NCBI RefSeq assembly: GCF_003991155.1
Contig: NZ_CP031293.1
Length of the DNA: 64,000 nucleotides
Direction: 5' to 3' (one strand)
Source of the DNA: Escherichia coli
GTDB taxonomy: Bacteria; Pseudomonadota; Gammaproteobacteria; Enterobacterales; Enterobacteriaceae
The notes beneath the pieces are model-generated. The model did no database searches. It saw only the letters and a program-made list of their open reading frames with translations, and had not been told where the DNA came from. Made by a program: the position numbers and the translations under genes. Numbering within the stretch: the stretch's first letter is position 1; each line of letters starts with the position of its first letter. Below, piece by piece: positions 13,665-56,223 of this stretch.

Positions 13665-13689
13665 GACGAGGATCCGTAATTCAAAACCC

Positions 13690-15099
13690 TCATTCTACCA
13701 TGCAGGCGCGTAGCGACCAGTAGCGTAACGTGACGTCAGACTCACCCTGTAATATCAGCGAAGCTGGATGATGGGGAAAATAACGATTACTCATTACACC
13801 TTCACCATTATTGATGAATATCTCTACGCTGGAACTGTCACAGAGAATCTTCAGTGACGTTACGCTTCCTCGCCAGTAACGAGTTAGTTTCTCTTGCCCT
13901 GCAAGGCTTCTCCTCTGTAGTTGAATACCATCGTCATTAAGATGCAGTGCCAGCGCATTGCCAAAATTCAGATACAGCTCACCCGACGGAATGATGTCCA
14001 TTTCCAGGCGTTCAATTTCGACATGCGGCGCATGATCTGCTTTTCCTTGCCAGAAGTGTTCAGCTTCACGCAGTTGCGCGAGTTCCCTGATTGGCATCTG
14101 AAACAATTTTCCCTTCTGGAATGAGAGTTCGCGAAAACAGGTCATTTGATGCTGCCAATGATGCTTTCTGGTTGGTTGCAACATCTCTTCGCCATCAGGA
14201 ACCCCCATCCAGCCGACCAGCAATCGTCGCCCGTCCGGGGCTTCCATCGTCTGTGGTGCATAGAATTCAAATCCCGCATCCAGCTCTGAGAAAGCGCCAT
14301 GCGTAAATTTGCCTGTCTCGTAATCAAACTGTCCATGTAGCCAGGCGCAGGGATAAGTATTCAGATAGCGCTCATGTTCGCGCACCATTCCCTGGGGGCA
14401 ACAGAGGAGAATGTATTCACCATCAAGGGCGAAAAAATCAGGACATTCCCACATGTATCCTGCGTTATCTATTTCATTCAGACCGTTACCAGCAATTTCT
14501 CCATGAAAAGACCAGGTATAGAGATCGACAGAGGAATACAGCAGCACTTTCCCCCGTTTCTCTTTATCTTGCGCGCCAAGCACCATGTACCATTGGCTGT
14601 TGTGCTTCCAGACTTTTGGATCACGAACATGTCCGGTGTAACCATCAGGTAACGGTATGACAGGGCCTAGTTTATCAAACCCGCCCTGGTTATTTTCGGT
14701 GGCCAGGCATTGCCATGCCGTTCTGCTGCCATCATCAAACTTAACATTACCGGTATAGCAAAGTGTGAGAACGCCCTGATTATTAACCGCGCTTCCTGAG
14801 TAACAACCATTACGGTCGTACTCTTTATCGGGCATTAGCGCTAATGGTTCATGCTGCCAGTGCAATAAATCCGTCGAACTCCAGTGCCCCCAACATTTGT
14901 ACTTATGATCACAAGCCAGTGGATTCCACTGATAAAACAGATGATAGCGGCCTCCAGACCAGCAAAAGCCATTTGGATCGTTCATTAGTCCAGTGACGGG
15001 AGCGAGATGCCAACAAGGATAGTGGGCATCTGCCAGTACTTTGGACTGACCTTTCATCACTGCCTGTAAAATCGCGGGCATTTGTGAAGGCATCGACAT
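13690..15099 (-). CDS. scrB: sucrose-6-phosphate hydrolase (GH32 invertase)
   Basis: 469 aa; GH32 motif MNDPNGF, WECPD; start overlaps scrA stop. Confidence 0.92.
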
Positions 15100-16469
15100 T
15101 ACTCCTCGTCCGTTTTGTATTTGAGTAATAAAGAGAGGCTAAAAGCGACAGCGAAAGCAATCACCATTCCAATAATATAATTAACCAACGATGTTGGCTG
15201 AACGATTGCCATGCCGGGTATTGCGGTCAGACCAACGGCAGTCATATAAACGTGAACAGAGACAACCCAGGCACCGCCGGCAGCGCCACCAATTAAGGCC
15301 GCAATAAAAGGTTTAACAAAACGAAGGTTGATACCAAAAATAGCGGCTTCAGTAATCCCTAACATTGCGGAAAAGGCCGAGGGTAGGGTGATTGCTTTAA
15401 TTTTTGTATCTTTGGTTTTAAACCATACCGCCAGACATGCACCGCCTTGCGCAACGTTTGCCATTGCCCAAATAGGCAGCAGGAAATTAACACCGATTGC
15501 AGGGTTACCTAAAAGTCCTGCTTCAATTGCGTGGAAGCTATGATGAATACCCGTAATAACAATCGCTGAATATAGTCCGCCGAATAACAACCCTGCTAAC
15601 CAGCCTGCGTGTGCAATCAGCGTGCTGAGAACGAAAGAGATACCGTCACCTAACGCTCGTCCTGCCGGACCAATAATCAAAAGAGCGATAAAGCCAGAAA
15701 TGACGACAGTCAGAAATGGCGTCAGAATGAGATCCAGAGCATCAGGGATAAACCTGCGTAACTGTTTTTCCACTATGCTCATAAACCATACTGCCAGAAG
15801 TACGGGGAAAACCGTTCCCTGATAGCCAATCATGGCGATTTCAAAACCGAAGAAGTTCATTGTCTGAAATCCCGCAGCAACGCCCCAGGCATTTGTGAGT
15901 GCCGGGTGAGTCAGAATCCCTCCTAATGTCGCGCCAAGATAAGGATTTCCACCAAATTCACGAGCAGCAGTAAAGCCAATAAGGATGGGGAGAATAATAA
16001 ATGCGGCTGAACTGCACATATCCAGCAGGATATAAATCGCATTATCGGCATTCACCCAGCCATATATTTTCACCATTCCCAGAAGCCCCATTAATAAACC
16101 AGAAGCAACAATGGCTGGAATGATGGGGACAAAAATATTAGAAAGTAGCCGTGCTATTCGCTGAAAAGGATTGAGTTTTTGAGCGGCGAGTCGAGCGGTA
16201 TCTGCTTTACTGGATTCGCTAATACCTGCAACCTGAATAAAGGCAGCATAGACTTTATTAACCACGCCGGTGCCAAAGATGATTTGCATTTGCCCTGAAT
16301 TACGAAAACAACCTTTCACTCCATCAATCTGGCCAATGGCATGTTGATCGGCAAGTGTGTCGTCAACCAGTACCAGCCGTAGGCGAGTGGCGCAATGTGC
16401 TGCACTGGTGATGTTCTCCTTACCACCTAATAAAGGAAGCAACGATTGGGCGATTTTATCGAAATCCAT
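15099..16469 (-). CDS. scrA: PTS sucrose-specific EIIBC component
   Basis: 456 aa; EIIB Cys motif (AAHCATRLRL) followed by EIIC membrane domain. Confidence 0.92.
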   Translation of the reverse strand: MDFDKIAQSLLPLLGGKENITSAAHCATRLRLVLVDDTLADQHAIGQIDGVKGCFRNSGQMQIIFGTGVVNKVYAAFIQVAGISESSKADTARLAAQKLNPFQRIARLLSNIFVPIIPAIVASGLLMGLLGMVKIYGWVNADNAIYILLDMCSSAAFIILPILIGFTAAREFGGNPYLGATLGGILTHPALTNAWGVAAGFQTMNFFGFEIAMIGYQGTVFPVLLAVWFMSIVEKQLRRFIPDALDLILTPFLTVVISGFIALLIIGPAGRALGDGISFVLSTLIAHAGWLAGLLFGGLYSAIVITGIHHSFHAIEAGLLGNPAIGVNFLLPIWAMANVAQGGACLAVWFKTKDTKIKAITLPSAFSAMLGITEAAIFGINLRFVKPFIAALIGGAAGGAWVVSVHVYMTAVGLTAIPGMAIVQPTSLVNYIIGMVIAFAVAFSLSLLLKYKTDEE

Positions 16470-16529
16470 ATAACCCTCTAATTCATTGTTATTTCAGTAA
16501 AAGCCTCACATCCGTGAGGCTGTCTGGTA

Positions 16530-18071
<1,542 letters not shown>

Positions 18072-18091
18072 TTATAAAAATTGCTAAAATG

Positions 18092-18105
18092 CTAAACCGG
18101 TTTAG
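18092..18105. promoter_or_regulatory. candidate ScrR operator (perfect palindrome CTAAACCGGTTTAG) upstream of scrY
   Basis: 14-bp perfect palindrome in scrK-scrY intergenic region. Confidence 0.6.
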
Positions 18106-18150
18106 GTGTTGATAATAAAGCTGACTTTTTAGCCAGAGCAATTATTTTCG

Positions 18151-18164
18151 CTAAACCGATTTAG
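18151..18164. promoter_or_regulatory. candidate second ScrR operator (CTAAACCGATTTAG)
   Basis: near-perfect copy of the palindrome 59 bp from the first. Confidence 0.55.
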
Positions 18165-18217
18165 TAAATGTGACAGGCACGACAAATCGGGTTACAGATA
18201 CAACAGCAGGATCACTA

Positions 18218-19135
18218 TTATGAAGGGAGATCGTGTTGTCGGGGTAAGGCGGTCATCGCGCCTTTAGCCGTGGTCGCCAGAGCACCACAAATCTGAGCTT
18301 GTGCAATGATTCGTTCAAGCTGTCTGGTATTTGTTGGTATTCCAGAATCAGCCAGACCTGCAAGTAATCCAGCGACAAAAGCATCTCCTGCCCCGGTCGT
18401 ATCGACGACAGAAACAGGTTTGGCGGGATAGTGGATAAACTGCCCCTGAAAATACACAAGTACGCCATTTTTTCCTTGTGTAATAAGCAATAAAGTCAAC
18501 GAATAACGTTGTACTAATGAATATGCGCCTTGCTGAACCTGGCTTTCGCCACTGATGAATAGCAACTCTTCTTCGGACAATTTAGCGATATTCGCCAGCG
18601 AAAGTGCGCGATCAAGGTATTTCCTTAATAGCGCTTCACTCTGCCAGAGATCGCTGCGGATATTGGGATCAAAACTGATGTTTCCGCCAGCCTGACGTAT
18701 TTTCTCCATAGCCAGAAATGCGGTACTTCGGGAAGGTTCTGCACTGAGCGCAATGGAACAAAGATGGAGCCATTCACCCGGCCCAAATGCAGGAAGGTCA
18801 CCAGGTTGTAAAAAAAGATCGGCACTTGGGCGTACCATAAAGGTAAAGTTTCTTTCTCCTTGCTCATCAAGTCCTACAGCCACAATTGAGGTGCGTTGTT
18901 GAGGATCAAGAGACATATAACGTGTATCAACATTTTCTGTACTCAGTGTCTGATACATAAAGCGACCGAAAGGATCATCGCCAACTTTGCCAATAAAGGC
19001 ACTTTTCCCCCCCAGCCTTGCGATACCGACTGCAACATTAGCAGGCGCCCCGCCAGGACACTGTAGTAGTCTCCCCTGGCTTTCGGGTAATAAATCAACA
19101 ACCGCATCACCGAGTACCCATACTCTTGCGCTCAT
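18218..19135 (-). CDS. scrK: fructokinase (PfkB family)
   Basis: 305 aa; PfkB/ribokinase motifs (DTTGAGDAF); first gene of scr cluster; RBS GGAG. Confidence 0.9.
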   Translation of the reverse strand: MSARVWVLGDAVVDLLPESQGRLLQCPGGAPANVAVGIARLGGKSAFIGKVGDDPFGRFMYQTLSTENVDTRYMSLDPQQRTSIVAVGLDEQGERNFTFMVRPSADLFLQPGDLPAFGPGEWLHLCSIALSAEPSRSTAFLAMEKIRQAGGNISFDPNIRSDLWQSEALLRKYLDRALSLANIAKLSEEELLFISGESQVQQGAYSLVQRYSLTLLLITQGKNGVLVYFQGQFIHYPAKPVSVVDTTGAGDAFVAGLLAGLADSGIPTNTRQLERIIAQAQICGALATTAKGAMTALPRQHDLPS

Positions 19136-35150: not shown

Positions 35151-35357
35151 CGAGCAGGATTCCTGATTTTAAACGTGAACGCCGCAGGAAGAATCAACAG
35201 GCATAGAATGGCGTTGGGTGCTTGAGGCTGTCTGGCGTTAAGCATTCGCGAGGTTCCAGATGGACAAAAGCCCCAGGCGATATTTCTATCAACCTGAGGC
35301 CAGCGTTCGAACCTAAGCAATTCGGATGTTAGTCTCTTCTTTGCAGGGAGGCAAGAC

Positions 35358-35510
35358 ATGCTGACAAAATATGCCCTTGTGGCAATCATCGTACTGTGTT
35401 GTACAGTACTGGGATTCACGTTGATGGTAGGCGACTCGTTGTGTGAGTTGAGTATCAGAGAACGTGGTATGGAGTTTAAGGCAGTTCTCGCTTACGAATC
35501 GAAGAAGTAG
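35358..35510 (+). CDS. hokX: Hok/Gef-family type I toxin (small membrane peptide), 50 aa
   Basis: [50 protein letters not shown]: N-terminal TM helix, conserved LCE and AYES motifs of Hok; RBS GGGAGG; not in ORF track (below size cutoff); symbol by position next to cysH, from memory. Confidence 0.8.
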
Positions 35511-35635: not shown

Positions 35636-36673
35636 TTAAGATGCCTTCGCCAGCTCCTTCACCAACGGTAGCATTATCCGCATAACATCACGGCAGCGAC
35701 GTTCTATTCTTCCTGGAAGTGCCTTATCAATATGCTGTTGATTATCCAGTCTTACGTCATGCCAGCTATTTCCTGCAGGGAATGCGGCTGTTTTTGCGCG
35801 TTGCTGATAACCATCCTTATTCCCAAGATTCCAGTTTGTCGCTTCCACCGAAAGTACAGCAATGCCCGCTTTGTCGAATATTTCTGCGTCATTACAACAC
35901 CCAGTGCCTTTCGGATAGTTTTTATTCAAACCTGGATTTGTGGTGGCGGCAATTCCATGACTGCGGGCAATTGCCAGCGCCCGGTCGCGCGTTAATTTCC
36001 TTACTGCTTCAGGTGTTTTTACGCCACTGTTGAAATACAGCTTATCGCCAACAATCAGATTATCGAGATTAATCACCAATAAAGTATTTTTCTTTTCGGT
36101 ATCACTCATGCGCTTGAGTAAATTCTCAGCGCCTAATTTCCCTTCTTCTTCACCACTGGTTGCCACAAAACGAATGCCATATTCGGTTGGCGTATTTTTC
36201 AGGCGTTCAGCCAGCTCCAGCATGACACCTAAACCTGCGGCGTTATCATCCATTCCTTGTAACGTCAGCCCGCCGAGATTGGCATCGGCGTCAGCATCGC
36301 TCAGCGGGGCGTAAGTATCCAGATGCGCCATAATGATGATCTGCTGCGGCGCTTTGCCTTCATGAGCGGCAATCACCGTACTTCCCGTCACGTTATGCCA
36401 GCTCTTGCGATTATCGCGGGCGGTATAAATATACCGACTATTAAATGTCCGAATATCACTGCGATAACCCATTTGCTGAAACTGTTGGCGAATATAATCG
36501 GCAGATAACATTTCTGCAGGAGTTCCGGTCATGCGTCCCGGAAAGAAAGTAGCAATATGTCGTGCCTGGGTATTAGCAAAATCGCCAGGTTTAGGTGACG
36601 AGGCGTGTACGGGGAGAATAAAGCATACGCCGAGCGCCAGGGCAGCGGTACGGTGGCGCAATGCGGAAAACAT
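35636..36673 (-). CDS. iap: alkaline phosphatase isozyme conversion aminopeptidase
   Basis: 345 aa; signal peptide, M28-family peptidase sequence. Confidence 0.9.
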   Translation of the reverse strand: MFSALRHRTAALALGVCFILPVHASSPKPGDFANTQARHIATFFPGRMTGTPAEMLSADYIRQQFQQMGYRSDIRTFNSRYIYTARDNRKSWHNVTGSTVIAAHEGKAPQQIIIMAHLDTYAPLSDADADANLGGLTLQGMDDNAAGLGVMLELAERLKNTPTEYGIRFVATSGEEEGKLGAENLLKRMSDTEKKNTLLVINLDNLIVGDKLYFNSGVKTPEAVRKLTRDRALAIARSHGIAATTNPGLNKNYPKGTGCCNDAEIFDKAGIAVLSVEATNWNLGNKDGYQQRAKTAAFPAGNSWHDVRLDNQQHIDKALPGRIERRCRDVMRIMLPLVKELAKAS

Positions 36674-41953: not shown

Positions 41954-42979
41954 TTGAGTTCGATAATCTCACTTACCTCCACGGCAAACCGCAAGGCACC
42001 GGGCTGCTGAAAGCGAATCCGGAAGACTTTGTGGTGGTGGAAGATTTGGGCTTTGAGCCTGATGGTGAAGGTGAGCATATTCTGGTTAGAATCCTCAAAA
42101 ACGGCTGCAATACCCGTTTTGTGGCGGATGCACTGGCGAAATTCCTGAAAATTCATGCCCGTGAAGTCAGCTTCGCTGGGCAAAAAGATAAACATGCTGT
42201 TACGGAACAGTGGTTTTGTGCACGAGTGCCAGGTAAAGAGATGCCGGACCTCAGTGCTTTTCAACTGGAAGGTTGTCAGGTGCTGGAGTATGCGCGACAC
42301 AAGCGTAAGTTGCGTTTAGGTGCACTAAAAGGTAATGCTTTCACTCTGGTGCTGCGCGATGTAAGCAACCGTGACGATGTTGAACAACGTCTCATCGATA
42401 TTTGCGTAAAAGGCGTGCCTAATTATTTTGGTGCTCAGCGTTTTGGTATTGGCGGTAGCAACTTGCAGGGTGCGCTGCGCTGGGCGCAAACCAATACTCC
42501 GGTGCGCGATCGCAATAAACGGAGTTTTTGGTTGTCGGCAGCCCGCAGTGCGTTGTTTAATCAGATTGTTGCTGAGCGCCTCAAAAAAGCAGACGTTAAT
42601 CAAGTTGTTGACGGCGATGCGCTACAATTAGCCGGACGTGGTAGCTGGTTTGTTGCAACCACCGAAGAACTGGCGGAATTACAGCGTCGCGTCAACGATA
42701 AAGAGCTAATGATAACCGCCGCATTGCCGGGCAGTGGCGAATGGGGAACTCAGTGTGAAGCGCTGGCATTCGAACAAGCAGCTGTCGCCGCAGAAACTGA
42801 ATTACAAGCCTTACTGGTGCGCGAAAAAGTTGAAGCCGCGCGCAGAGCGATGCTGCTGTATCCGCAACAATTAAGCTGGAACTGGTGGGATGACGTCACC
42901 GTAGAAATCCGTTTCTGGCTTCCGGCGGGAAGTTTTGCAACCAGCGTTGTCAGGGAACTTATCAACACAACAGGTGATT

Positions 42980-45702: not shown

Positions 45703-46695
45703 ATGAGTCAGAATACGCTGAAAGTTCATGATTTAAATGAAGATGCGGAATTTGATGAGAACGGAGTTGAGGTTTTTGACGAAAAGGCCTTAGTAGAAGA
45801 GGAACCCAGTGATAACGATTTGGCCGAAGAGGAACTGTTATCGCAGGGAGCCACACAGCGTGTGCTGGACGCGACTCAGCTTTACCTTGGTGAGATTGGT
45901 TATTCACCACTGTTAACGGCCGAAGAAGAAGTTTATTTTGCGCGTCGCGCACTGCGTGGAGATGTTGCCTCTCGCCGCCGGATGATCGAGAGTAACTTGC
46001 GTCTGGTGGTAAAAATTGCCCGCCGTTATGGCAATCGTGGTCTGGCGTTGCTGGATCTTATCGAAGAGGGCAACCTGGGGCTGATCCGCGCGGTAGAGAA
46101 GTTTGACCCGGAACGTGGTTTCCGCTTCTCAACATACGCAACCTGGTGGATTCGCCAGACGATCGAACGGGCGATTATGAACCAAACCCGTACTATTCGT
46201 TTGCCGATTCACATCGTAAAGGAGCTGAACGTTTACCTGCGAACCGCACGTGAGTTGTCCCATAAGCTGGACCACGAACCAAGTGCGGAAGAGATCGCAG
46301 AGCAACTGGATAAGCCAGTTGATGACGTCAGCCGTATGCTTCGTCTTAACGAGCGCATTACCTCGGTAGACACCCCGCTGGGTGGTGATTCCGAAAAAGC
46401 GTTGCTGGACATCCTGGCCGATGAAAAAGAGAATGGTCCGGAAGATACCACGCAAGATGACGATATGAAGCAGAGCATCGTCAAATGGCTGTTCGAGCTG
46501 AACGCCAAACAGCGTGAAGTACTGGCACGTCGATTCGGTTTGCTGGGGTACGAAGCGGCAACACTGGAAGATGTAGGTCGTGAAATTGGCCTCACCCGTG
46601 AACGTGTTCGCCAGATTCAGGTTGAAGGCCTGCGCCGTTTGCGCGAAATCCTGCAAACGCAGGGGCTGAATATCGAAGCGCTGTTCCGCGAGTAA
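45703..46695 (+). CDS. rpoS: RNA polymerase sigma factor RpoS (sigma-38), full length
   Basis: 330 aa from [11 protein letters not shown]; RBS AGGAG; sigma-70 family regions 2-4; no premature stop. Confidence 0.96.
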
Positions 46696-46709
46696 GTAAG
46701 CATCTGTCA

Positions 46710-46746
46710 GAAAGGCCAGTCTCTTATGAGGCTGGCCTTTTTCTTT
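46710..46746 (+). terminator. rpoS intrinsic terminator
   Basis: AAAGGCCAG...CTGGCCTTT stem followed by TTTTTCTTTT. Confidence 0.8.
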
Positions 46747-46771
46747 TGTATGGGGAGTTGGTGTGTTTCGT

Positions 46772-46806
46772 CGCCTGGATAAGACACGTCAGCGTCCCAT
46801 CCGGCA
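46772..46806. repeat. REP-like element
   Basis: CGCCTGGATAAGACACGTCAGCGTCCCATCCGGCA resembles REP consensus. Confidence 0.6.
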
Positions 46807-46815
46807 ATCAACATC

Positions 46816-47223
46816 CTATTTGCTCATCATCTTGCGCACCAGCTGCATAAACAGCTCCTGCTCTTCTGCACTCAAACGCCCCAAAAATTCCTCATCCACA
46901 CTGTCACCAATCGGTATCGCCGCAGCAAGTACCTTTTCTCCTTCGGCAGTCAGCCAGACAAAGCGTCGCCGCTTATCAGCAGAGTCATGTTCTCGTCTGA
47001 CTAAGCCACGATTTTCCATTCGTGCCAACATTTCTGCCAGCGTTGCTTTGGTGCTGACGGCTGCTTCTATCAGTGCCACCTGTTCGATACCAGGTTTATC
47101 AGCAATGGCGCGCATCACCGCGTACTGTGGTTTGGTCAGATCAGGTAACTCGTGCTGCCAGCGAGCCGTGTGCTGCTGAAAAAGCTGTCGTAACTGATGG
47201 AACGCTTTATTTCGTAACGCCAT
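46816..47223 (-). CDS. MarR-family transcriptional regulator; start at internal ATG (MALRNK...)
   Basis: winged-helix MarR sequence; RBS GGAG 7 nt upstream of ATG at 47223; divergent from decarboxylase operon. Confidence 0.8.
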   Translation of the reverse strand: MALRNKAFHQLRQLFQQHTARWQHELPDLTKPQYAVMRAIADKPGIEQVALIEAAVSTKATLAEMLARMENRGLVRREHDSADKRRRFVWLTAEGEKVLAAAIPIGDSVDEEFLGRLSAEEQELFMQLVRKMMSK

Positions 47224-47246
47224 GTAAACTCCGGGCAAACTATCTG

Positions 47247-47261
47247 CCGCTATCATAGCGG
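47247..47261. promoter_or_regulatory. palindrome CCGCTA-tca-TAGCGG in the MarR/decarboxylase divergent promoter region (candidate operator)
   Basis: 6-bp inverted repeat arms directly upstream of the MarR-family gene. Confidence 0.4.
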
Positions 47262-47369
47262 TTTTTCAGTGACGCAGGGGATGTTGTTACTTTTCAGTGC
47301 TTGCCGCGATGAGAACAGAGGCGTATTTTAATAATAACGTTCGTGTACGAACAATTAAGAGAATTAACA

Positions 47370-47963
47370 ATGAGACTGATCGTCGGGATGACAGGGGCCA
47401 CCGGAGCGCCTCTTGGTGTGGCATTACTGCAAGCGCTGCGGGAGATGCCGAATGTCGAGACTCATCTGGTGATGTCGAAGTGGGCGAAAACCACCATTGA
47501 ACTGGAAACGCCTTACAACGCCCGCGATGTTGCTGCCCTCGCAGACTTCTGCCATAACCCGGCGGATCAGGCCGCAACCATCTCCTCAGGTTCCTTTCGT
47601 ACCGACGGCATGATCGTTATTCCGTGCAGTATGAAAACGCTCGCCGGTATCCGTGCCGGTTACGCCGATGGCCTGGTGGGGCGCGCGGCGGACGTCGTGC
47701 TCAAAGAAGGCCGCAAACTGGTGCTGGTGCCGCGTGAAATGCCGCTTAGCACAATCCATCTCGAAAATATGCTCGCACTTTCGCGCATGGGCGTGGCGAT
47801 GGTGCCGCCGATGCCTGCCTTTTATAACCATCCCGAAACGGTAGATGACATTGTCCACCACGTGGTAGCCCGCGTGCTGGATCAATTTGGCCTCGAACAT
47901 CCTCACGCCAGGCGCTGGCAAGGATTGCCGCAGGCCCGGAATTTTTCTCAGGAGAATGAATAA
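47370..47963 (+). CDS. ecdB: UbiX-family flavin prenyltransferase (decarboxylase B subunit)
   Basis: 197 aa from MRLIVGMTGATGA; UbiX/Pad1 family; symbol by analogy with the E. coli O157 locus, from memory. Confidence 0.85.
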   Translation: MRLIVGMTGATGAPLGVALLQALREMPNVETHLVMSKWAKTTIELETPYNARDVAALADFCHNPADQAATISSGSFRTDGMIVIPCSMKTLAGIRAGYADGLVGRAADVVLKEGRKLVLVPREMPLSTIHLENMLALSRMGVAMVPPMPAFYNHPETVDDIVHHVVARVLDQFGLEHPHARRWQGLPQARNFSQENE

Positions 47964-49390
47964 TGGCATTTGATGATTTACGCAGCTTTTTACAGGCGCT
48001 CGACGACCATGGGCAATTGCTGAAAATCAGCGAAGAGGTGAACGCGGAACCGGATCTGGCAGCAGCAGCTAACGCCACCGGGCGTATCGGCGACGGCGCG
48101 CCCGCGCTGTGGTTTGATAATATTCGCGGCTTTACCGATGCCCGCGTGGCAATGAACACCATCGGTTCCTGGCAGAACCACGCGATTTCCCTCGGCCTGC
48201 CGCCAAATACCCCGGTTAAAAAACAGATTGATGAGTTTATCCGCCGCTGGGATAACTTCCCGATTGCCCCGGAGCGCCGCGCCAATCCGGCCTGGGCGCA
48301 GAACACCGTTGATGGCGACGAGATCAACCTGTTCGATATCCTGCCGCTGTTTCGTTTAAACGATGGCGATGGCGGTTTCTATCTCGACAAAGCGTGCGTG
48401 GTTTCCCGCGATCCGCTTGATCCGGATAACTTCGGCAAGCAGAACGTCGGCATCTACCGTATGGAAGTGAAGGGTAAGCGTAAGCTCGGTCTGCAACCGG
48501 TGCCGATGCACGATATCGCCCTGCATCTGCATAAAGCGGAAGAGCGCGGTGAAGATCTGCCGATTGCCATCACCCTGGGTAACGACCCGATCATCACCCT
48601 GATGGGGGCCACGCCGCTGAAATACGATCAGTCCGAGTACGAAATGGCGGGCGCGCTGCGCGAAAGTCCGTACCCGATCGCCACCGCTCCGCTGACCGGT
48701 TTTGATGTGCCGTGGGGCTCGGAGGTGATCCTCGAAGGAGTCATCGAAAGCCGCAAACGCGAGATTGAAGGGCCATTCGGTGAGTTTACCGGCCACTACT
48801 CCGGCGGGCGCAATATGACCGTCGTGCGCATTGATAAAGTCTCTTATCGCAGCAAACCCATTTTTGAATCGCTCTATCTCGGGATGCCGTGGACGGAAAT
48901 CGACTACCTGATGGGGCCAGCCACCTGTGTGCCGCTGTATCAACAACTGAAAGCTGAGTTCCCGGAAGTGCAGGCGGTAAACGCCATGTACACCCACGGC
49001 CTGCTGGCGATTATCTCCACCAAAAAACGCTACGGTGGCTTTGCCCGCGCGGTGGGCCTCCGTGCGATGACCACGCCGCACGGTCTGGGCTACGTGAAGA
49101 TGGTGATTATGGTCGATGAAGACGTTGATCCGTTCAACCTGCCGCAGGTGATGTGGGCGCTCTCTTCGAAAGTGAACCCGGCAGGGGATTTGGTGCAGTT
49201 GCCGAATATGTCCGTGCTGGAACTCGACCCTGGCTCAAGTCCGGCGGGGATCACCGACAAGCTGATTATCGACGCCACCACGCCTGTCGCCCCGGACAAC
49301 CGTGGTCACTACAGTCAGCCGGTGGTGGATTTACCGGAAACCAAAGCCTGGGCTGAAAAACTGACCGCTATGCTGGCCGCACGTCAATAA
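47963..49390 (+). CDS. ecdC: UbiD-family reversible hydroxyarylic acid decarboxylase, C subunit
   Basis: 475 aa; UbiD-family sequence; translationally coupled to upstream gene. Confidence 0.85.
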   Translation: MAFDDLRSFLQALDDHGQLLKISEEVNAEPDLAAAANATGRIGDGAPALWFDNIRGFTDARVAMNTIGSWQNHAISLGLPPNTPVKKQIDEFIRRWDNFPIAPERRANPAWAQNTVDGDEINLFDILPLFRLNDGDGGFYLDKACVVSRDPLDPDNFGKQNVGIYRMEVKGKRKLGLQPVPMHDIALHLHKAEERGEDLPIAITLGNDPIITLMGATPLKYDQSEYEMAGALRESPYPIATAPLTGFDVPWGSEVILEGVIESRKREIEGPFGEFTGHYSGGRNMTVVRIDKVSYRSKPIFESLYLGMPWTEIDYLMGPATCVPLYQQLKAEFPEVQAVNAMYTHGLLAIISTKKRYGGFARAVGLRAMTTPHGLGYVKMVIMVDEDVDPFNLPQVMWALSSKVNPAGDLVQLPNMSVLELDPGSSPAGITDKLIIDATTPVAPDNRGHYSQPVVDLPETKAWAEKLTAMLAARQ

Positions 49391-49400
49391 GGAGAACAAG

Positions 49401-49637
49401 ATGATTTGTCCACGTTGTGCCGATGAACAGATTGAAGTGATGGCGAAATCGCCGGTAAAAGATGTCTGGACGGTATATCAGTGCCAGCATTGCCTTTATA
49501 CCTGGCGCGATACCGAACCGCTGCGCCGCACCAGCCGCGAACATTATCCCGAAGCGTTCCGCATGACGCAGAAAGATATTGATGACGCGCCGATGGTGCC
49601 GAGCATCCCGCCGCTGCTGGCGGAAGGTAAGTGTTAA
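49401..49637 (+). CDS. ecdD: decarboxylase small subunit D (zinc-ribbon like)
   Basis: 78 aa; CPRC...CQHC Cys pairs; position after the UbiD-like gene. Confidence 0.75.
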   Translation: MICPRCADEQIEVMAKSPVKDVWTVYQCQHCLYTWRDTEPLRRTSREHYPEAFRMTQKDIDDAPMVPSIPPLLAEGKC

Positions 49638-49639
49638 TA

Positions 49640-49676
49640 AAAAAGTGCCGGGTAGAGGCTTTGCTTTACCCGGCCA
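49640..49676. terminator. bidirectional terminator between decarboxylase operon and pphB
   Basis: AAAAA GCCGGGTA 12-nt loop TACCCGGC; T-run on the minus strand. Confidence 0.65.
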
Positions 49677-49678
49677 CG

Positions 49679-50335
49679 TTATTTAATTTTATAAAACGAT
49701 AACCGTCTGCTTTCCGGCGAGCCGGTATCAATATAAACCTGATTGGCAAATGTCTGGATATTTATAAACATCATATGTCCAAAGATAAAACAGTCGGCAC
49801 CGTTTATTTCTTTTAACTCTCCCTTGAATGATTTCTGCACGCGATCAACAGGCCAGAGTAATTCGCTTTCTGCTATTTCTTTACCAAACTGATATTCATC
49901 ACCCGGATAATCTGCATGTGCGATGACATATTTTATGTTGTCGTTAGTGATTTCAATAATATGTGGAAGGTGATGGAATTTCAGCAACAGATCTATTGCC
50001 TCTTGTTGCTCTGAATCATTTAAATTGAAAAACCAGTCACCACCGCTGGCAAGCCACATATTTCCATCGCCAGTTTCGAATGCCTCAAGCGCCATCGCTT
50101 CGTGGTTGCCTTTAGCCGATGTAAACCAGGGCTGGTTTAGCAGGCGCAGCACGTTAAGACTCTCCGGCCCACGATCAATATTATCGCCGACAGAAATAAG
50201 TAAGTCGGTTTCAGGGCAAAAAGAGAGTTGATGTAAGCGGGATTGTAATAATTGATAGTCACCATGAATATCACCAACGGCCCATATATGGCGATAGTGA
50301 TGGGCATTGATTTTTTGATAGCGTGTAGATGGCAT
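49679..50335 (-). CDS. pphB: serine/threonine protein phosphatase 2
   Basis: 218 aa; metallophosphatase motifs GDIHG, GDNIDRG, GNHE. Confidence 0.9.
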   Translation of the reverse strand: MPSTRYQKINAHHYRHIWAVGDIHGDYQLLQSRLHQLSFCPETDLLISVGDNIDRGPESLNVLRLLNQPWFTSAKGNHEAMALEAFETGDGNMWLASGGDWFFNLNDSEQQEAIDLLLKFHHLPHIIEITNDNIKYVIAHADYPGDEYQFGKEIAESELLWPVDRVQKSFKGELKEINGADCFIFGHMMFINIQTFANQVYIDTGSPESRRLSFYKIK

Positions 50336-50440
50336 GGTTTTACCCTGTAAAATAAGATTTCCTATTATACAGGGTATTTTTATTTGATTCGTCAGTTGTC
50401 GTTAATATTCCCGATAGCAAAAGACTATCGGGAATTGTTA

Positions 50441-53002
50441 TTACACCAGACTCTTCAAGCGATAAATCCACTCCAGCGCCTGACGCGGAGTCAGTGAATC
50501 CGGGTCGAGGTTTTCCAGTGCCTCGACCGCAGGCGAAGTTTCTTCCGGTAGGGACAGCAAAGACATTTGTGTACCATCCACTTGCGTAGCAGCGGCGTTC
50601 GGCGAAATGCTTTCCAGCTCACGCAGTTTTTGCCGTGCGCGCTTAATAACCTCTTTTGGCACGCCCGCCAGAGCAGCAACCGCCAGGCCGTAGCTTTTGC
50701 TCGCCGCGCCATCCTGCACGCTGTGCATAAAGGCAATGGTGTCGCCGTGCTCCAGCGCATCGAGATGCACGTTGGCGACGCCTTCCATTTTCTCCGGCAG
50801 TTGGGTCAGCTCGAAATAGTGGGTAGCAAACAGCGTCAACGCTTTGATCTTATTTGCCAGATTTTCCGCGCATGCCCACGCCAGCGACAGACCATCGTAA
50901 GTGGAAGTTCCGCGCCCAATCTCATCCATCAGCACCAGACTGTACTCGGTGGCGTTATGTAAAATATTGGCGGTTTCGGTCATCTCCACCATAAAGGTTG
51001 AACGCCCGGATGCCAGATCGTCTGCCGCGCCTACGCGGGTAAAGATACGGTCGATCGGGCCAATCTCGACTTTTTGCGCCGGTACGTAGCTGCCGATATA
51101 CGCCATCAGCGCAATCAACGCGGTCTGGCGCATATAGGTACTTTTACCGCCCATGTTCGGACCGGTAATGATCAACATGCGGCGCTGCGGCGACAGGTTC
51201 AGCGGGTTAGCGATAAACGGCTCATTCAGTACTTGTTCAACTACCGGATGGCGACCTTCGGTAATGCGAATACCCGGTTTATCAATAAAGGTCGGGCAGG
51301 TGTAGTTCAGGGTATAGGCCCGTTCCGCCAGGTTCACCAGCACGTCGAGTTCCGCCAGCGCGCTCGCGCTCTGTTGCAACGCTTCCAGATGCGGCAACAG
51401 CAGGTCGAACAGCTCTTCATAAAGTTGTTTTTCCAGAGCCAGTGCTTTGCCTTTTGAGGTGAGAACTTTATCTTCGTACTCTTTCAGCTCCGGAATAATG
51501 TAACGCTCGGCGTTTTTCAGCGTCTGGCGGCGCATGTAGTTAATCGGTGCCAGATGGCTTTGCCCACGGCTGATCTGAATGTAGTAGCCGTGCACTGCAT
51601 TAAAGCCAACTTTCAGCGTGTCCAGGCCGGTACGTTCACGCTCGCGGACCTCCAGACGCTCCAGATAATCGGTCGCACCGTCAGCCAGCGCGCGCCACTC
51701 ATCCAGCTCTTCGTTATAGCCCGATGCGATAACACCACCGTCGCGTACCAGCACCGGTGGTGTGTCGATGATTGCTCGCTCCAGCAGATCGCGCAGCTCG
51801 GCAAACTCGCCCATCTTCTCACGCAGCGCTTGTACCGGTGCACTATCGACATTTTCTAACTGCGCACGCAACTCCGGCAGTTGCTGGAAAGCGTGGCGCA
51901 TACGGGCCAGATCGCGCGGGCGAGCAGTACGTAACGCCAGACGCGCCAGAATACGTTCCAGGTCGCCCACCTGACGCAGCACAGGCTGTATCTCGGCGGT
52001 GAAATCCTGCAATGCGCCAATAGTTTGCTGGCGCTCAAGCAACACGCGGGTATCGCGCACTGGCATATGCAGCCAGCGTTTCAGCATACGACTACCCATC
52101 GGCGTTACAGTGCAGTCGAGCACTGAAGCCAGCGTGTTTTCCGCACCGCCCGCCAGGTTCTGAGTAATTTCCAGGTTACGACGCGTCGCGGCATCCATAA
52201 TGATGCTGTCCTGCTCACGTTCCATGGTGATAGAACGAATATGCGGCAGGGTCGTGCGTTGGGTATCTTTCGCATACTGCAACAGACAACCGGCAGCACA
52301 AAGTCCGCGCGGCGCGTTCTCGACGCCAAAACCGACCAGATCGCGGGTGCCAAATTGCAGATTCAACTGCTGGCGCGCAGTGTCGATTTCAAACTCCCAC
52401 AGCGGACGACGACGCAGGCCGCGACGACCTTCAATCAGCGACATCTCGGCGAAATCTTCTGCATACAACAGCTCTGCCGGGTTGGTACGTTGCAGCTCTG
52501 CAGCCATCGTTTCGCGGTCCGCCGGTTCGCTAAGGCGAAAACGCCCGGAGCTGATATCCAACGTCGCGTAGCCGAACCCTTTGCTGTCCTGCCAGATAGC
52601 TGCCAGCAGGTTATCCTGACGCTCCTGCAACAGCGCTTCATCGCTGATGGTGCCCGGCGTAACGATACGGACAACTTTGCGCTCGACCGGCCCTTTGCTG
52701 GTCGCCGGATCGCCAATTTGTTCGCAGATGGCAACGGACTCGCCCTGATTCACCAGTTTGGCGAGATAGTTTTCCACCGCATGGTAGGGGATCCCCGCCA
52801 TCGGGATCGGCTCTCCCGCGGAAGCACCGCGTTTGGTCAGTGAAATATCCAGCAGCTGCGAGGCGCGTTTCGCGTCGTCATAAAACAGTTCGTAAAAGTC
52901 ACCCATCCGATAGAACAGCAGGATCTCGGGATGCTGGGCTTTCAGCTTGAGATACTGCTGCATCATTGGCGTATGGGCATCAAAATTTTCTATTGCACTC
53001 AT
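50441..53002 (-). CDS. mutS: DNA mismatch repair protein MutS
   Basis: 853 aa; Walker [10 protein letters not shown]; canonical MutS sequence. Confidence 0.97.
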
Positions 53003-53248
53003 GGAGTTATGTCCGGTTCCCTGATATTAAATGGGGTGTGATGGTTTTTATTTTCGTTGTAATCACATAAGGCGCACATGATACCGGAGTTAATCATTTC
53101 AGGGGAAGAAGCGAACGGCGAGTTCTTGATGGTGATTCCGGGAAAGATGCTGTTTTGCAGCTTTTGCGTGATGCTTATGAAGCAAGTACGCAAAATTGCG
53201 TCGGTTGAATAAACCTCCTCCTTCAGAGCCATAGTCCCCTTTCAAATT

Positions 53249-53271
53249 AAGTTGTAATATAAATACACCTT
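53249..53271. promoter_or_regulatory. candidate NsrR operator in ygbA promoter
   Basis: AAGTTGTAATATAAATACACCTT resembles the AT-rich inverted-repeat NsrR motif as I recall it; ygbA is a reported NsrR target. Confidence 0.35.
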
Positions 53272-53288
53272 AAGAGTATGGAGGCAGC

Positions 53289-53633
53289 ATGTCCGGCAAG
53301 CGTATCTCTCGTGAAAAACTGACGATTAAAAAAATGATCGATCTTTATCAAGCGAAATGCCCGCAGGCGTCAGCGGAGCCGGAGCATTACGACGCGCTGT
53401 TTGCCTACGCGCAAAAGCGGCTGGATAAATGTGTGTTCGGCGAAGAGAAACCAGCCTGTAAGCAGTGTCCGGTGCACTGTTACCAGCCAGCAAAGCGTGA
53501 AGAGATGAAACAGATTATGCGTTGGGCCGGGCCGCGAATGCTGTGGCGTCATCCGATCTTAACCGTGCGTCATCTCATCGATGACAAGCGTCCGGTGCCG
53601 GAGTTGCCAGAAAAATATCGTCCAAAGAAATAA
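53289..53633 (+). CDS. ygbA: nitrous-oxide-stimulated promoter family protein YgbA
   Basis: 114 aa; Cys-rich (CPQ...CKQCPVHC). Confidence 0.85.
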   Translation: MSGKRISREKLTIKKMIDLYQAKCPQASAEPEHYDALFAYAQKRLDKCVFGEEKPACKQCPVHCYQPAKREEMKQIMRWAGPRMLWRHPILTVRHLIDDKRPVPELPEKYRPKK

Positions 53634-53671
53634 ATCTGCCGGAGAGCCATACTCTCCGGCAAATAAGGCGT

Positions 53672-54100
53672 TTACGCTTTGGTGGCAATCAGGATGGCTG
53701 ATGCTTTGATCAATGCAATAACGCGCGAGCCAGTGGTGAGTTTCATTTCATCCTGACTTTCATTTGTTACCACTGCCACAATTTCAAAACCCGCATCCGT
53801 TTTGATATGGACAGTGGCGTTCACTGCGCCTTCGGTGATTGTCGACACGCTGCCAGCAAACTGGTTGCGAGCAGAGAATTTCAGTCCACAGTCTTCCGTT
53901 GCCAGTGTTACCCACGGGGCTTTAATCAGGGCAATCGCTTCTTTCCCTTTTGCCAGACCAAGAGCCTGCTGGCTGCTGTGTGTAACAATTGCCACCAGCT
54001 TTGCACCACCTGCCAGCGTCAGTTCTACTTCATCATTCACAGCGCCCATTGCTACTGCGCTAACTGTTCCGGTTAATTGATTTCTTGCTGAAACTGCCAT
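53672..54100 (-). CDS. molybdenum-pterin-binding (Mop, di-TOBE) protein
   Basis: 142 aa from MAVSARNQLTG with RBS AGGAGG; two tandem TOBE repeats each beginning SARNQ(L/F)(T/A)G(T/S)VS. Confidence 0.75.
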   Translation of the reverse strand: MAVSARNQLTGTVSAVAMGAVNDEVELTLAGGAKLVAIVTHSSQQALGLAKGKEAIALIKAPWVTLATEDCGLKFSARNQFAGSVSTITEGAVNATVHIKTDAGFEIVAVVTNESQDEMKLTTGSRVIALIKASAILIATKA

Positions 54101-54144
54101 ACTGCCTCCTTTCATTGAATGTTGATCGAGTATAACCACATCTG

Positions 54145-56223
54145 TTAAATCAATGCCGATTTATCAATTCCCAGTCGCTTCATCCGTGACAGCAGGGTCG
54201 TGCGTTTCAGCCCCAGACGTTGCGCAGCGCCTTTAGGTCCGGCAACCACGCCGTTAGTTTCTTTCAGCACGCGAACAATCAACTGATATTCATCTTCGCC
54301 CTCCTGAGCGACAACCGTTGCGGCAGGCGGCGTTTCAGGTTCTGGTAAAGCAATATCTGGCAATGACAGCTGCAGCACGTTGCCGCGTGTTAGCAATACC
54401 GCGCGCTCAATGACGTTTTCCAGCTCACGCACGTTGCCCGGCCATTCCATGTTGCTCAGGATGCGCAGCGTCTCGGCAGGAATGCTGTCGATATTGCGCC
54501 CCAGACGACGGGCAATTTTGAAGGTAAAGGCTTTCGCCAGCAGCGGAATATCTTCCGGACGCTCGCGTAGTGGCGGCAGGTGGATCGGGAATACGTTCAG
54601 GCGGTAATAGAGATCGCTACGGAACTCTCGGTCGGCGACCATTTTTTTCAGATCGCGGTTAGTCGCGGCAATTAAACGTACGTCCGTCTGAATGATTTTG
54701 TTGCTGCCAAGACGTTCAAACTCCTGTTCCTGTAATACACGCAGCAACTTCGGCTGTAACTCCAGCGGCATATCGCCCACTTCATCGAGGAATAGTGAGC
54801 TTTTATCCGCCAGTTCAAAACGACCAATGCGCTGAGCGCTGGCACCGGTAAAAGCCCCACGCTCATGACCAAATAGATCGCTTTCCAGCAATCCGGCAGG
54901 CATCGCCGCGCAGTTCATTTTGACCATGCGGCGATTATTACGCCCACTGAGATTATGGATCGCGCGGGCAATCAGCTCTTTACCTGTACCAGTTTCACCG
55001 AGGATCAGCACGGTACTGTCACTTTGCGCCACCATTTCAACTTGTTTAAGTACGCTGTACATGGCTTCGCTGCGGCCAATAATCTCGCCAAATTCACTAT
55101 CAACATTGTTGAGCTGCTCGGTCAGGGCGAGGTTTTCATCAACCAGCCGTTCTTTCAGACGATGAATTTCCTGATAGGCGAGGGCGTTATCGACAGCGAT
55201 TGCCACACGTTCGGCAATCTGGCGCAGTAAGCTCAGATTGGTAGTGGTAAATACTTTCTCTTCGCATTGCGCCAGTTTCAGCACGCCCAGCATGGTGTCG
55301 CCAGACATCAGCGGTAACAGGCACAAGGTTTGAATCTGGTTGCCCCAGGTGTCGAACAACATGCGTTCATAGGGGGCTAAATCGTCCCGCTCGTGGAGAT
55401 TAATCAACAGCATCTCTTTACTTTTGAAGACGCGTTCGGTGAGGGTTCCGGCTTCATCGACTTCGCTCTGTTCGTGGGCGGGATGCTGTTTATCAAGATA
55501 GTGAGTGGAGTAGATGTTGAGTTTGTTTTTACGGTGGCTGCGTAAGACAATGCTGATATCGTCAATGTCGAAATAGTAATGGATTTCTTTGGCGACTTCG
55601 CTGACCAGTTCGTCCATATCCAGGCGGGAAAGCACCGCGTTGGTGATGGCGACCAGGATGCGGAAGTTATCGCGTTCCCGGCATAACAACTCATAGTCGA
55701 CATTGTTAACGACGCGGCTCTGGATTTGTTCGGTGACGACAGAAACGATCTGCGTAAATGTTTGCAGGCGATTGAACTCTTTTTCACTCCACGGGCGATC
55801 GTCATAACGAATAAATTCACAGCCACCAAAAATATGCCCTTCCGCCGCCAGTGGCATCAGGCAATAGTGACCAAATTTGGGGTATAGCCCACCTGCGGCC
55901 AGCTGCGGCCAGGTTTCACAAAATTCTTCGTAACTGCAATGCAGCGTATCAGGGCGCGACAAAATGCTGCGTACCGGACCGTGTGCCAGAACAGTTTCGT
56001 CTTCATATTTAATGGGGGTGTCTTTTTCACGCGACGCGTAATAAGACGCACGTTGAGTCTGCGCTTGCCACAACACAATAGCCGCGTTGTCGGCGAGCGC
56101 AGAACGCTTTACCAGTTGCGAAAGAGCCTCACACAGCGAGGCCAGATCGGGCTGCTGCAATAGTGTCCGAGTGATGTCGAACAACCCTTGTTGTCCGAGA
56201 TCACTCATCGGTGTATATGACAT
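54145..56223 (-). CDS. fhlA: formate hydrogenlyase transcriptional activator (sigma-54 dependent)
   Basis: 692 aa from MSYTPMSDLG; GAF domains, AAA+ sigma-54 activator (GETGTGKE, GAFTGA), C-terminal HTH. Confidence 0.95.
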   Translation of the reverse strand: MSYTPMSDLGQQGLFDITRTLLQQPDLASLCEALSQLVKRSALADNAAIVLWQAQTQRASYYASREKDTPIKYEDETVLAHGPVRSILSRPDTLHCSYEEFCETWPQLAAGGLYPKFGHYCLMPLAAEGHIFGGCEFIRYDDRPWSEKEFNRLQTFTQIVSVVTEQIQSRVVNNVDYELLCRERDNFRILVAITNAVLSRLDMDELVSEVAKEIHYYFDIDDISIVLRSHRKNKLNIYSTHYLDKQHPAHEQSEVDEAGTLTERVFKSKEMLLINLHERDDLAPYERMLFDTWGNQIQTLCLLPLMSGDTMLGVLKLAQCEEKVFTTTNLSLLRQIAERVAIAVDNALAYQEIHRLKERLVDENLALTEQLNNVDSEFGEIIGRSEAMYSVLKQVEMVAQSDSTVLILGETGTGKELIARAIHNLSGRNNRRMVKMNCAAMPAGLLESDLFGHERGAFTGASAQRIGRFELADKSSLFLDEVGDMPLELQPKLLRVLQEQEFERLGSNKIIQTDVRLIAATNRDLKKMVADREFRSDLYYRLNVFPIHLPPLRERPEDIPLLAKAFTFKIARRLGRNIDSIPAETLRILSNMEWPGNVRELENVIERAVLLTRGNVLQLSLPDIALPEPETPPAATVVAQEGEDEYQLIVRVLKETNGVVAGPKGAAQRLGLKRTTLLSRMKRLGIDKSALI

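Follow-up and report, generated by a model that had tools for sequence, protein, structure and literature searches.

Which genes fill the interval between rpoS and mutS in this Escherichia coli chromosome, which reaction would their products carry out, and did they reach the site recently or descend with it? The window, meaning the whole stretch of 64,000 nucleotides that was analysed (contig NZ_CP031293.1, assembly GCF_003991155.1), carries between rpoS and pphB-mutS, at positions 46,816-49,637, a regulator gene and three divergent genes. A preliminary description made from the sequence had read them as a MarR regulator beside an operon for a UbiX-like protein, a UbiD-like decarboxylase and a small subunit with Cys pairs; the open reading frames (ORFs) lie where it placed them, and NCBIfam and Pfam matches agree. 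The gene set is identified here, with a probability of roughly 0.9, as a HosA-controlled non-oxidative hydroxyarylic acid decarboxylase (HAD) operon, variously named ecdBCD, kpdBCD, vdcBCD, yclBCD or 'HAD operon', situated in an O157-type ('pattern I') rpoS-mutS interval, ancestral to the locus in Enterobacteriaceae and deleted in K-12. Gene identities, intactness, motifs, the operator sequence with its conservation, synteny and population frequency were read directly from the window and the genomes compared with it. The features of the cluster are as follows.

46816-47223, minus strand: hosA, MarR-family repressor, 135 aa with the annotated start (Pfam MarR; PDB 8AGA match)
47247-47261, no strand assigned: palindrome CCGCTATCATAGCGG (arms CCGCTAT and ATAGCGG around a central C), 24-38 nt upstream of the hosA start
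47301-47329, plus strand: predicted sigma-70 promoter of vdcBCD, TTGCCG-17 nt-TATTTT, from cross-taxon conservation
47339-47352, no strand assigned: HosA operator, 14-bp palindrome GTTCGTGTACGAAC (half-sites GTTCGT and ACGAAC, spacer GT), from a sequence match to the published site
47370-47963, plus strand: vdcB (ecdB, kpdB, pad1), UbiX-family flavin prenyltransferase making prenylated flavin mononucleotide (prFMN), from NF041206
47963-49390, plus strand: vdcC (ecdC, kpdC, yclC), UbiD-family prFMN-dependent decarboxylase, catalytic subunit, from NF041204
49401-49637, plus strand: vdcD (ecdD, kpdD, yclD), zinc-ribbon activator subunit, 78 aa, from NF041205

Gene content and operon structure

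Annotation was taken from RefSeq record NZ_CP029747 (E. coli 2016C-3878), which is 100% identical over the interval. According to the ORF list and this annotation, positions 46816-49637 run exactly from the regulator stop codon to the stop codon of the last operon gene, and all four genes, the minus-strand MarR-family gene and the divergent UbiX-like, UbiD-like and 78-aa zinc-ribbon genes, are intact. The longest MarR-family ORF spans 46816-47256 on the minus strand, and the annotated start shortens it to 46816-47223. The vdcB stop and vdcC start codons overlap in TAATG, and vdcC is separated from vdcD by 10 nt, with GGAG ahead of vdcD, which indicates that vdcB, vdcC and vdcD make up a single operon in the order B-C-D that diverges from the regulator gene and has a hairpin 3' of vdcD. 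A gathering-threshold Rfam scan of the whole window yielded no RNA family within the cluster or close to it, its sole match being sok at 35216-35373.

The decarboxylase subunits

Each operon product passes the NCBIfam cut-off of its own model, set at 290 bits for VdcB (NF041206), 650 bits for VdcC (NF041204) and 30 bits for VdcD (NF041205). VdcB scores 312.7 bits against NF041206 and 248 bits against TIGR00421, contains the Pfam Flavoprotein domain and is identical at 193 of 197 residues (98%) to PDB 1SBZ, 'Pad1', the UbiX-like protein of E. coli O157:H7. VdcC reaches 790 bits over profile positions 2-466 of 467, includes the Pfam domains UbiD_N, UbiD and UbiD_C, and aligns from end to end with ShVdcC, the decarboxylase for vanillate and 4-hydroxybenzoate from Sedimentibacter hydroxybenzoicus (PDB 7AE4 chain A, E=8e-160). 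Its motifs NVGIYR at 161-166 (N161, R166) and EGPFGE at 269-274 (E269, E274) appear to supply the N-x-G-x-Y-R pattern for metal and cofactor and the catalytic triad of the enzyme; R166, E269 and E274 correspond to the Arg and two Glu of the UbiD Glu-Arg-Glu ('ERE') triad and align with ShVdcC, including the catalytic E278. VdcD scores 121.2 bits over the full profile (1-70 of 70) and matches ShdD (PDB 7AE4 chain a). Its Cys residues at 3, 6, 28 and 31 form two CxxC knuckles at the same positions as the reported Zn ligands of ShVdcD, and the C-terminal Pro-rich tail, here MVPSIPPLL, is common to both proteins (PMC8379154). Together, the three model passes, the PDB matches and the motifs argue for a non-oxidative hydroxyarylic acid decarboxylase of the VdcBCD/EcdBCD/KpdBCD/BsdBCD type, and the reversible decarboxylase architecture proposed in the preliminary description holds, judging from the VdcB, VdcC and VdcD models and the structural matches.

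The comparison with characterised systems places the operon closest to those of other E. coli. HosA and the HAD operon of strains UMN026, E2348/69 and O157:H7 (Roy & Ranjan 2016, as cited in bioRxiv 10.1101/2024.04.24.590444 and PMC6261655) have the same genes, order and locus as the window; HosA is identical to PDB 8AGA at 132 of 134 residues, VdcB to 1SBZ at 193 of 197, and the operator and its surroundings are close to the published oligonucleotides, differing at one central operator base (GT versus AT). KpdBCD is an orthologous B-C-D operon, and the K. pneumoniae kpdBCD genes expressed in E. coli turned 4-hydroxybenzoate (4-HBA) into phenol (Lupa 2005, as cited in PMC6424909). The orthologues of VdcC in the Klebsiella oxytoca group and Enterobacter, encoded at the same rpoS-mutS position, share about 96-97% protein identity with it; the regulators (72-78%) and B subunits (87%) of other genera are far more diverged than C. 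The VdcCD enzymes of Sedimentibacter hydroxybenzoicus and Bacillus subtilis (7AE4, PMC8379154) resemble the proteins described here in that C has the UbiD fold and the ERE triad and D is a Cys4 zinc ribbon ending in a Pro-rich tail, and differ in showing only moderate sequence identity, in coming from Gram-positive anaerobe/Firmicute sources and in having other regulators.

The UbiD-like enzyme might instead be an AroY-type decarboxylase acting on protocatechuate (3,4-dihydroxybenzoate) rather than on 4-HBA or vanillate, which is very unlikely. The two types share the UbiD fold and dependence on prFMN, and Klebsiella and Enterobacter B and D subunits raise AroY activity in engineered strains, but AroY is active without a D subunit (PMC5779730), whereas this operon retains a conserved one, and its cognate HosA responds, in the literature, to 4-HBA. 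The AroY-type structures 5O3M and 5NY5 match VdcC at E values of only about 1e-25 to 1e-28, compared with 8e-160 for the VdcC of 7AE4, and VdcC clears its own specific NCBIfam model at 790 bits.

Still less credible is the suggestion that the genes are spare UbiX/UbiD paralogues for ubiquinone biosynthesis, decarboxylating 3-octaprenyl-4-hydroxybenzoate, for although they belong to the UbiX and UbiD families and 4-HBA is the ubiquinone ring precursor, the score for the UbiD equivalog NF008175 is 174 bits where 788 are required, the structures of E. coli UbiD are far more distant from VdcC (only E=5e-47) than 7AE4, UbiD lacks a D subunit, ubiquinone is made without the cluster in K-12 and in over half of E. 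coli genomes, and control by free 4-HBA suits a catabolic or detoxifying role.

HosA, operator and predicted promoter

The regulator is identical at 132 of 134 positions to PDB 8AGA ('Transcriptional regulator HosA') and scores 45.7 bits against Pfam MarR, combining a winged-helix MarR domain with near-identity to HosA. According to bioRxiv 10.1101/2024.04.24.590444, UMN026 HosA represses its own gene and the HAD operon through a palindrome that lies downstream of the start of transcription; 4-HBA frees HosA from the DNA and induces the operon. The HosA binding site is 14 bp long, and the dissociation constant for 4-HBA is 4.7 uM (PMC6261655).

The published UMN026 HosA oligonucleotides, CAGAGGCGTATTTTAATAATAAC-GTTCGTATACGAAC-AATTAAGAGAATAAACATGAG, closely match window positions 47316-47373, with two mismatches: one central operator base, GTTCGTGTACGAAC here in place of GTTCGTATACGAAC (spacer GT versus AT), and one flanking base. 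The match at 47339-47352 is the only one for the operator in the window. It stands between hosA and vdcB, downstream of the predicted promoter, and its placement relative to the transcription start follows from the predicted promoter. Both that sigma-70 promoter, TTGCCG-17-TATTTT, and the start itself are predicted from conservation across genera; they would put the operator at about +4 to +17, which is consistent with the published account. A sigma-70 scan of 46600-49800 returned no promoter at a threshold of 9, the proposed one matching 8 of 12 positions.

Aligned across 15 taxa ranging from E. coli to Mangrovibacter, the hosA-vdcB intergenic region is weakly conserved overall, with a mean column identity of 60%. 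Both operator half-sites are invariant in all 15 taxa, as are the promoter positions TTG at 47301-47303, TA at 47324-47325 and T at 47329. Likewise, the core AT-ATA-C of the palindrome CCGCTATCATAGCGG is invariant in the 15 taxa while the surrounding intergenic sequence varies; this palindrome may be the -10 element of hosA (TATGAT, minus strand) or a second regulatory site. The operator was also followed in a cross-species scan with one genome per species, in which the best 80 of 353 relatives were examined. The exact sequence GTTCGTNNACGAAC occurs in 53 of these 80 loci, in one or two copies, and without exception directly ahead of the operon's first gene, also where vdcB is missing.

Two side observations concern additional operator copies. 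Two exact copies lie upstream of vdcB in Pantoea latae and Vibrio salinus (L066, 7300-7313 and 7370-7383; L082, 7287-7300 and 7356-7369), and a second, degenerate copy, ATCGTATACGAAC, is found in Pseudocitrobacter, K. oxytoca, Enterobacter and Kluyvera (alignment A1, columns about 125-150), E. coli having none.

Proposed mechanism

The scheme proposed here borrows from the literature on near-identical or homologous proteins for the activity of the enzyme, the part played by VdcD, sensitivity to oxygen and the way HosA responds to 4-HBA. When substrate is absent, a HosA dimer would occupy GTTCGTGTACGAAC, a short way past the predicted vdcB promoter, and block transcription; binding of 4-HBA to HosA would cause it to leave the operator. 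VdcB would prenylate reduced flavin mononucleotide to give the prFMN cofactor. By analogy, VdcC, with its UbiD fold, would use prFMN, Mn2+ and the Glu-Arg-Glu triad to convert 4-HBA reversibly into phenol and probably also vanillate into guaiacol, while the Cys4 zinc ribbon of VdcD would be the stoichiometric partner of VdcC that keeps the catalytic loops in place.

Several published results underlie these steps. Homologues of the B subunit produce prenylated flavin (PMC5779730). In the Sedimentibacter and Bacillus enzymes, VdcC is inactive without VdcD, a stoichiometric zinc-ribbon partner stabilising the ERE loops; VdcCD accepts 4-HBA and vanillate, works with prFMN and Mn2+, and is inactivated by O2 at the cofactor (PMC8379154).

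Arrangement and frequency in Escherichia coli

The genes and hairpins that flank the cluster define the form of the interval.

45703-46695, plus strand: rpoS, left flank, core gene, 330 aa at full length (NCBIfam RpoS equivalog, 604 bits; annotated rpoS)
46709-46742, plus strand: rpoS terminator hairpin, 15-pair stem followed by a T run
49647-49674, no strand assigned: hairpin between the convergent vdcD and pphB, 11-pair stem, at the junction of the O157-type (pattern I) arrangement
49679-50335, minus strand: pphB, right flank (NF007425, 460 bits)
50441-53002, minus strand: mutS, right flank, 853-aa ORF (annotated mutS)

The rpoS terminator is the final stretch shared with K-12 ahead of the cluster, the K-12 alignment stopping at window position 46741. 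Polymorphism of the mutS-rpoS (o454-nlpD) interval has been described by Herbelin 2000, LeClerc 1999 and Kotewicz 2003 (as cited in PMC4209514), and four patterns are distinguished: I, the O157 type; II, the K-12 type; III, the B2 type; and IV, with kpdBCD, slyA and the ygb genes (Ewers 2014, PMC4209514). The preliminary description was therefore right to call the interval a known polymorphic hotspot. The window shows pattern I (O157:H7 / EHEC-1 type), in which slyA (hosA) and kpdBCD are present and o454 (ygbN) is absent: hosA-vdcBCD is there, ygbN to ygbI are missing, and the cluster directly adjoins pphB.

Frequencies were obtained from 5426 complete E. coli genomes. The hosA-vdcBCD cluster is present in 2379 (44%) and the K-12 ygb segment in 4577 (84%), so that at least 1530 (about 29%) must carry both, and the two segments are adjacent and not alternative. 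Strain ES8 exemplifies this combination, with the order rpoS-hosA-vdcBCD-ygbN..ygbI-pphB-mutS, and the contiguous arrangement of the window, hosA-vdcBCD-pphB-mutS, is found in 810 genomes (15%). The earlier statement that K-12 has ygbI-ygbN instead of the decarboxylase genes is accurate for MG1655, where ygbI-ygbN lie between rpoS and pphB and a copy of the cluster was looked for at the locus and found absent, but the implied exclusivity does not survive the 1530 or more genomes with both.

The manner of absence is also informative. In genomes without the cluster, only about 42 bp of the query matched, at the rpoS-terminator end. The hairpin AAAAGGTCCGATGCCCATCGGACCTTTTT stands right after the rpoS terminator in K-12 and after vdcD in strains with both segments; its retention in K-12 points to a clean deletion of hosA-vdcBCD that left the distal terminator as a scar. 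The vdcD-hairpin-pphB junction, in turn, is common to the window, O157, Escherichia sp. E1V33 and Pseudocitrobacter, which argues that pattern I is old and no recent scar.

As a separate observation, insertion sequence (IS) elements interrupt the matched stretch in a few genomes: IS200/IS605 in E400634, IS1B in MRY15-117 and MRY15-131, and ISVsa5 in 23CRST013 (records H2, H78, H79 and H134). Insertion may thus be a route of inactivation besides deletion in some E. coli.

Ancestry of the cluster

Among the best 80 of 353 relatives, the protein identity of VdcC is 88-100%, and the rpoS-mutS interval houses the cluster in Citrobacter, Salmonella enterica subsp. arizonae and diarizonae, the Klebsiella oxytoca group, Enterobacter, Lelliottia, Leclercia, Kluyvera, Kosakonia, Atlantibacter, Pseudocitrobacter, Phytobacter, Franconibacter and Mangrovibacter. 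Away from rpoS and mutS, hosA-vdc(B)CD is found in Pantoea, Erwinia, Rahnella, Chimaeribacter, Leminorella and one Vibrio. Within this set of 80, pphB adjoins the cluster only in Escherichia and Pseudocitrobacter. Both segments stand between mutS and rpoS in S. enterica subsp. diarizonae, with ygbI-ygbM (ygbI-M) adjoining hosA of the hosA-vdcBCD cluster. In Escherichia, either pattern I or pattern IV may be ancestral: the diarizonae arrangement combines the two segments, while the pattern I junction of vdcD, hairpin and pphB recurs in Escherichia sp. E1V33 and Pseudocitrobacter.

Synonymous divergence (dS) from other genera is 0.7-1.2 for vdcC, 0.5-1.1 for rpoS and 0.9-1.5 for mutS, and the ratio of nonsynonymous to synonymous divergence (dN/dS) is 0.015-0.03, about 0.008 and 0.02-0.05, respectively. 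Synteny across genera, dS like that of the flanks and low dN/dS fit vertical inheritance under strong purifying selection, with later loss in some E. coli lineages. The sequence comparisons thus point to an old, family-level operon that lineages including K-12 have lost.

A recent horizontal island marking pathogenic lineages, a reading of which the preliminary description gave the lineage-marker part, is as hard to credit as the ubiquinone role. The cluster is patchy in E. coli (44% of genomes), its GC content of 55-59% is slightly above that of the flanks, and bioRxiv 10.1101/2024.04.24.590444 claims horizontal acquisition of hosA and the operon from Shigella dysenteriae. However, the same rpoS-mutS position recurs across many genera, from Citrobacter to Mangrovibacter, and synonymous divergence matches that of the flanking core genes, both of which argue against an origin in Shigella; the cluster borders have neither mobility genes nor repeats; and the distal terminator remains in K-12 as the scar of a deletion. 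Wastewater, river water, livestock and companion animals, moreover, are among the sources of carrier isolates. What remains of the marker idea is a strain-typing feature; as a sign of pathogenic lineages it is too narrow for a cluster present in 44% of E. coli, in isolates from water and animals and in many genera.

Variation in the cassette was also noted. It is inverted relative to E. coli, with vdcD facing rpoS, in S. diarizonae and S. arizonae (L019, L020) and in Phytobacter (L023, L049, L051). In about a dozen species, namely Superficieibacter, Cedecea, Pluralibacter, Chimaeribacter, Mangrovibacter phragmitis, Siccibacter, Rouxiella and some Rahnella and Erwinia (L038, L054, L055, L064, L065, L068, L074-L076, L080, L083, L085), hosA-vdcCD occurs without vdcB, and those of these loci with an exact operator (L038, L055, L075, L083, L085) have it directly upstream of vdcC. 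Species lacking vdcB presumably rely on the housekeeping UbiX for prFMN.

Divergence of the mutS side

Identity of the window to K-12, O157 and ES8 is about 99% through rpoS and falls to 93-96% at the rpoS terminator (about 46700), staying low until about 54500 inside fhlA; this stretch (46700-54500) covers hosA-vdcBCD, pphB, mutS and ygbA and reaches into fhlA. Compared with O157, dS is 0.035 for rpoS and 0.26-0.27 for vdcC and mutS. Divergence of the whole strain, for example as a member of a cryptic clade, was considered and rejected, since 2278 genomes match pyrG-eno at 99% identity or more and the low identity is local, beyond rpoS. The drop fits the known mosaic of the mutS region, which has been described as mosaic and recombination-prone (Brown 2001 and Denamur 2000, as cited in PMC4209514; mosaic behaviour also in PMC7232297).

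The window haplotype is shared exactly by about 49 of the 5426 genomes, and the next closest, at 97%, include IAI39, CE10 and SMS-3-5; to most E. coli copies the nucleotide identity of the window allele is only 94-96%. IAI39, CE10 and SMS-3-5 are phylogroup F reference strains, and the window strain probably belongs to a lineage related to that phylogroup.

A gene for a TOBE-domain (molybdopterin-binding, 'modE'/c3292-like) protein stands between ygbA and fhlA at 53663-54143 (ORF 53672-54139, minus strand). It is absent from K-12, O157 and ES8, whose alignments skip 480 bases, and its presence between fhlA and ygbA distinguishes the window from EDL933. A c3292-like gene has been reported in B2 strains, IAI39, E. 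albertii and E. fergusonii (PMC4209514, PMC7232297). With this gene and pattern I together, the window joins an O157-type rpoS side to a B2/F-type fhlA side.

Further observations in the window

Several observations lie farther from the cluster. Patches of low identity at 36001-36500 (iap) and 42001-42500 (truD), about 90-95% against O157 and ES8 in surroundings of 97-99%, suggest further small recombination tracts. A hok/sok-type toxin-antitoxin locus lies between cysH and iap at 35216-35510, comprising the Rfam sok match (110 bits, 35216-35373) and a Hok/Gef coding sequence at about 35358-35510. On the iap side facing cysH, O157 and ES8 have type I-E CRISPR-Cas, and the window strain is without cas genes there. 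A sucrose-utilisation cluster at about 12657-19135 encodes, according to the annotation of the identical record, a sucrose phosphotransferase system IIBC component, a carbohydrate porin and a kinase, with further ORFs at 12657-15099; K-12 presumably lacks this cluster.

Discussion

Several points weigh against identifying the locus as an ancestral, HosA-controlled hydroxyarylic acid decarboxylase operon. The operator is one central base off the experimentally tested version, and the predicted vdcBCD promoter agrees with the consensus at only 8 of 12 positions, the transcription start being derived from it. Which of 4-HBA, vanillate and protocatechuate the E. coli enzyme accepts is extrapolated from homologues with only about 55-60% identity (7AE4) or from other genera. 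For the physiological role in E. coli there are candidates only, namely detoxification of plant phenolic acids or parabens, gut phenol production and interplay with the ubiquinone precursor 4-HBA. Finally, frequent loss in E. coli fits awkwardly with very strong purifying selection across genera.

One speculative extension, a long shot although somewhat less so than the rival explanations above, starts from this last tension. The conserved VdcC (88-100% identity, dN/dS 0.015-0.03, tighter than MutS), its repeated deletion in E. coli and the dS past the rpoS terminator, roughly 7-fold higher than in rpoS itself, might reflect an important and so far unrecognised conditional role, for example control of the free pool of 4-HBA, the ubiquinone precursor, under anoxia, or gut phenol production; balancing or niche-specific selection would then act on presence and absence, which would be carried along with recombination-prone mutS haplotypes.

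All components of the system are already known and published, as EcdBCD/KpdBCD/VdcBCD, HosA and the mutS-rpoS patterns I-IV; enzyme, cofactor synthase, zinc-ribbon activator, regulator, operator, inducer and the polymorphism of the interval are each on record, in keeping with the preliminary judgement that this is not a new system. The present analysis adds the frequencies (44% for the cluster, 15% for pattern I and about 29% for both segments), the ancestry argument from cross-genus synteny and dN/dS, and the conservation of promoter and operator. Its main value lies in annotating the genes correctly and in providing a feature for strain typing in the much-studied rpoS-mutS hotspot. A 4-HBA biosensor made from HosA and its operator is already in use, as are the B and D subunits in muconate engineering.

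For the family, an operon that is ancestral and repeatedly lost is a modest correction of the published Shigella-origin claim and no discovery. For E. coli, going by the homologous enzymes, the operon would confer a capacity to convert 4-HBA, derived from parabens, plant phenolics and tyrosine metabolism, into phenol, and would thereby bear on phenol production in the gut.

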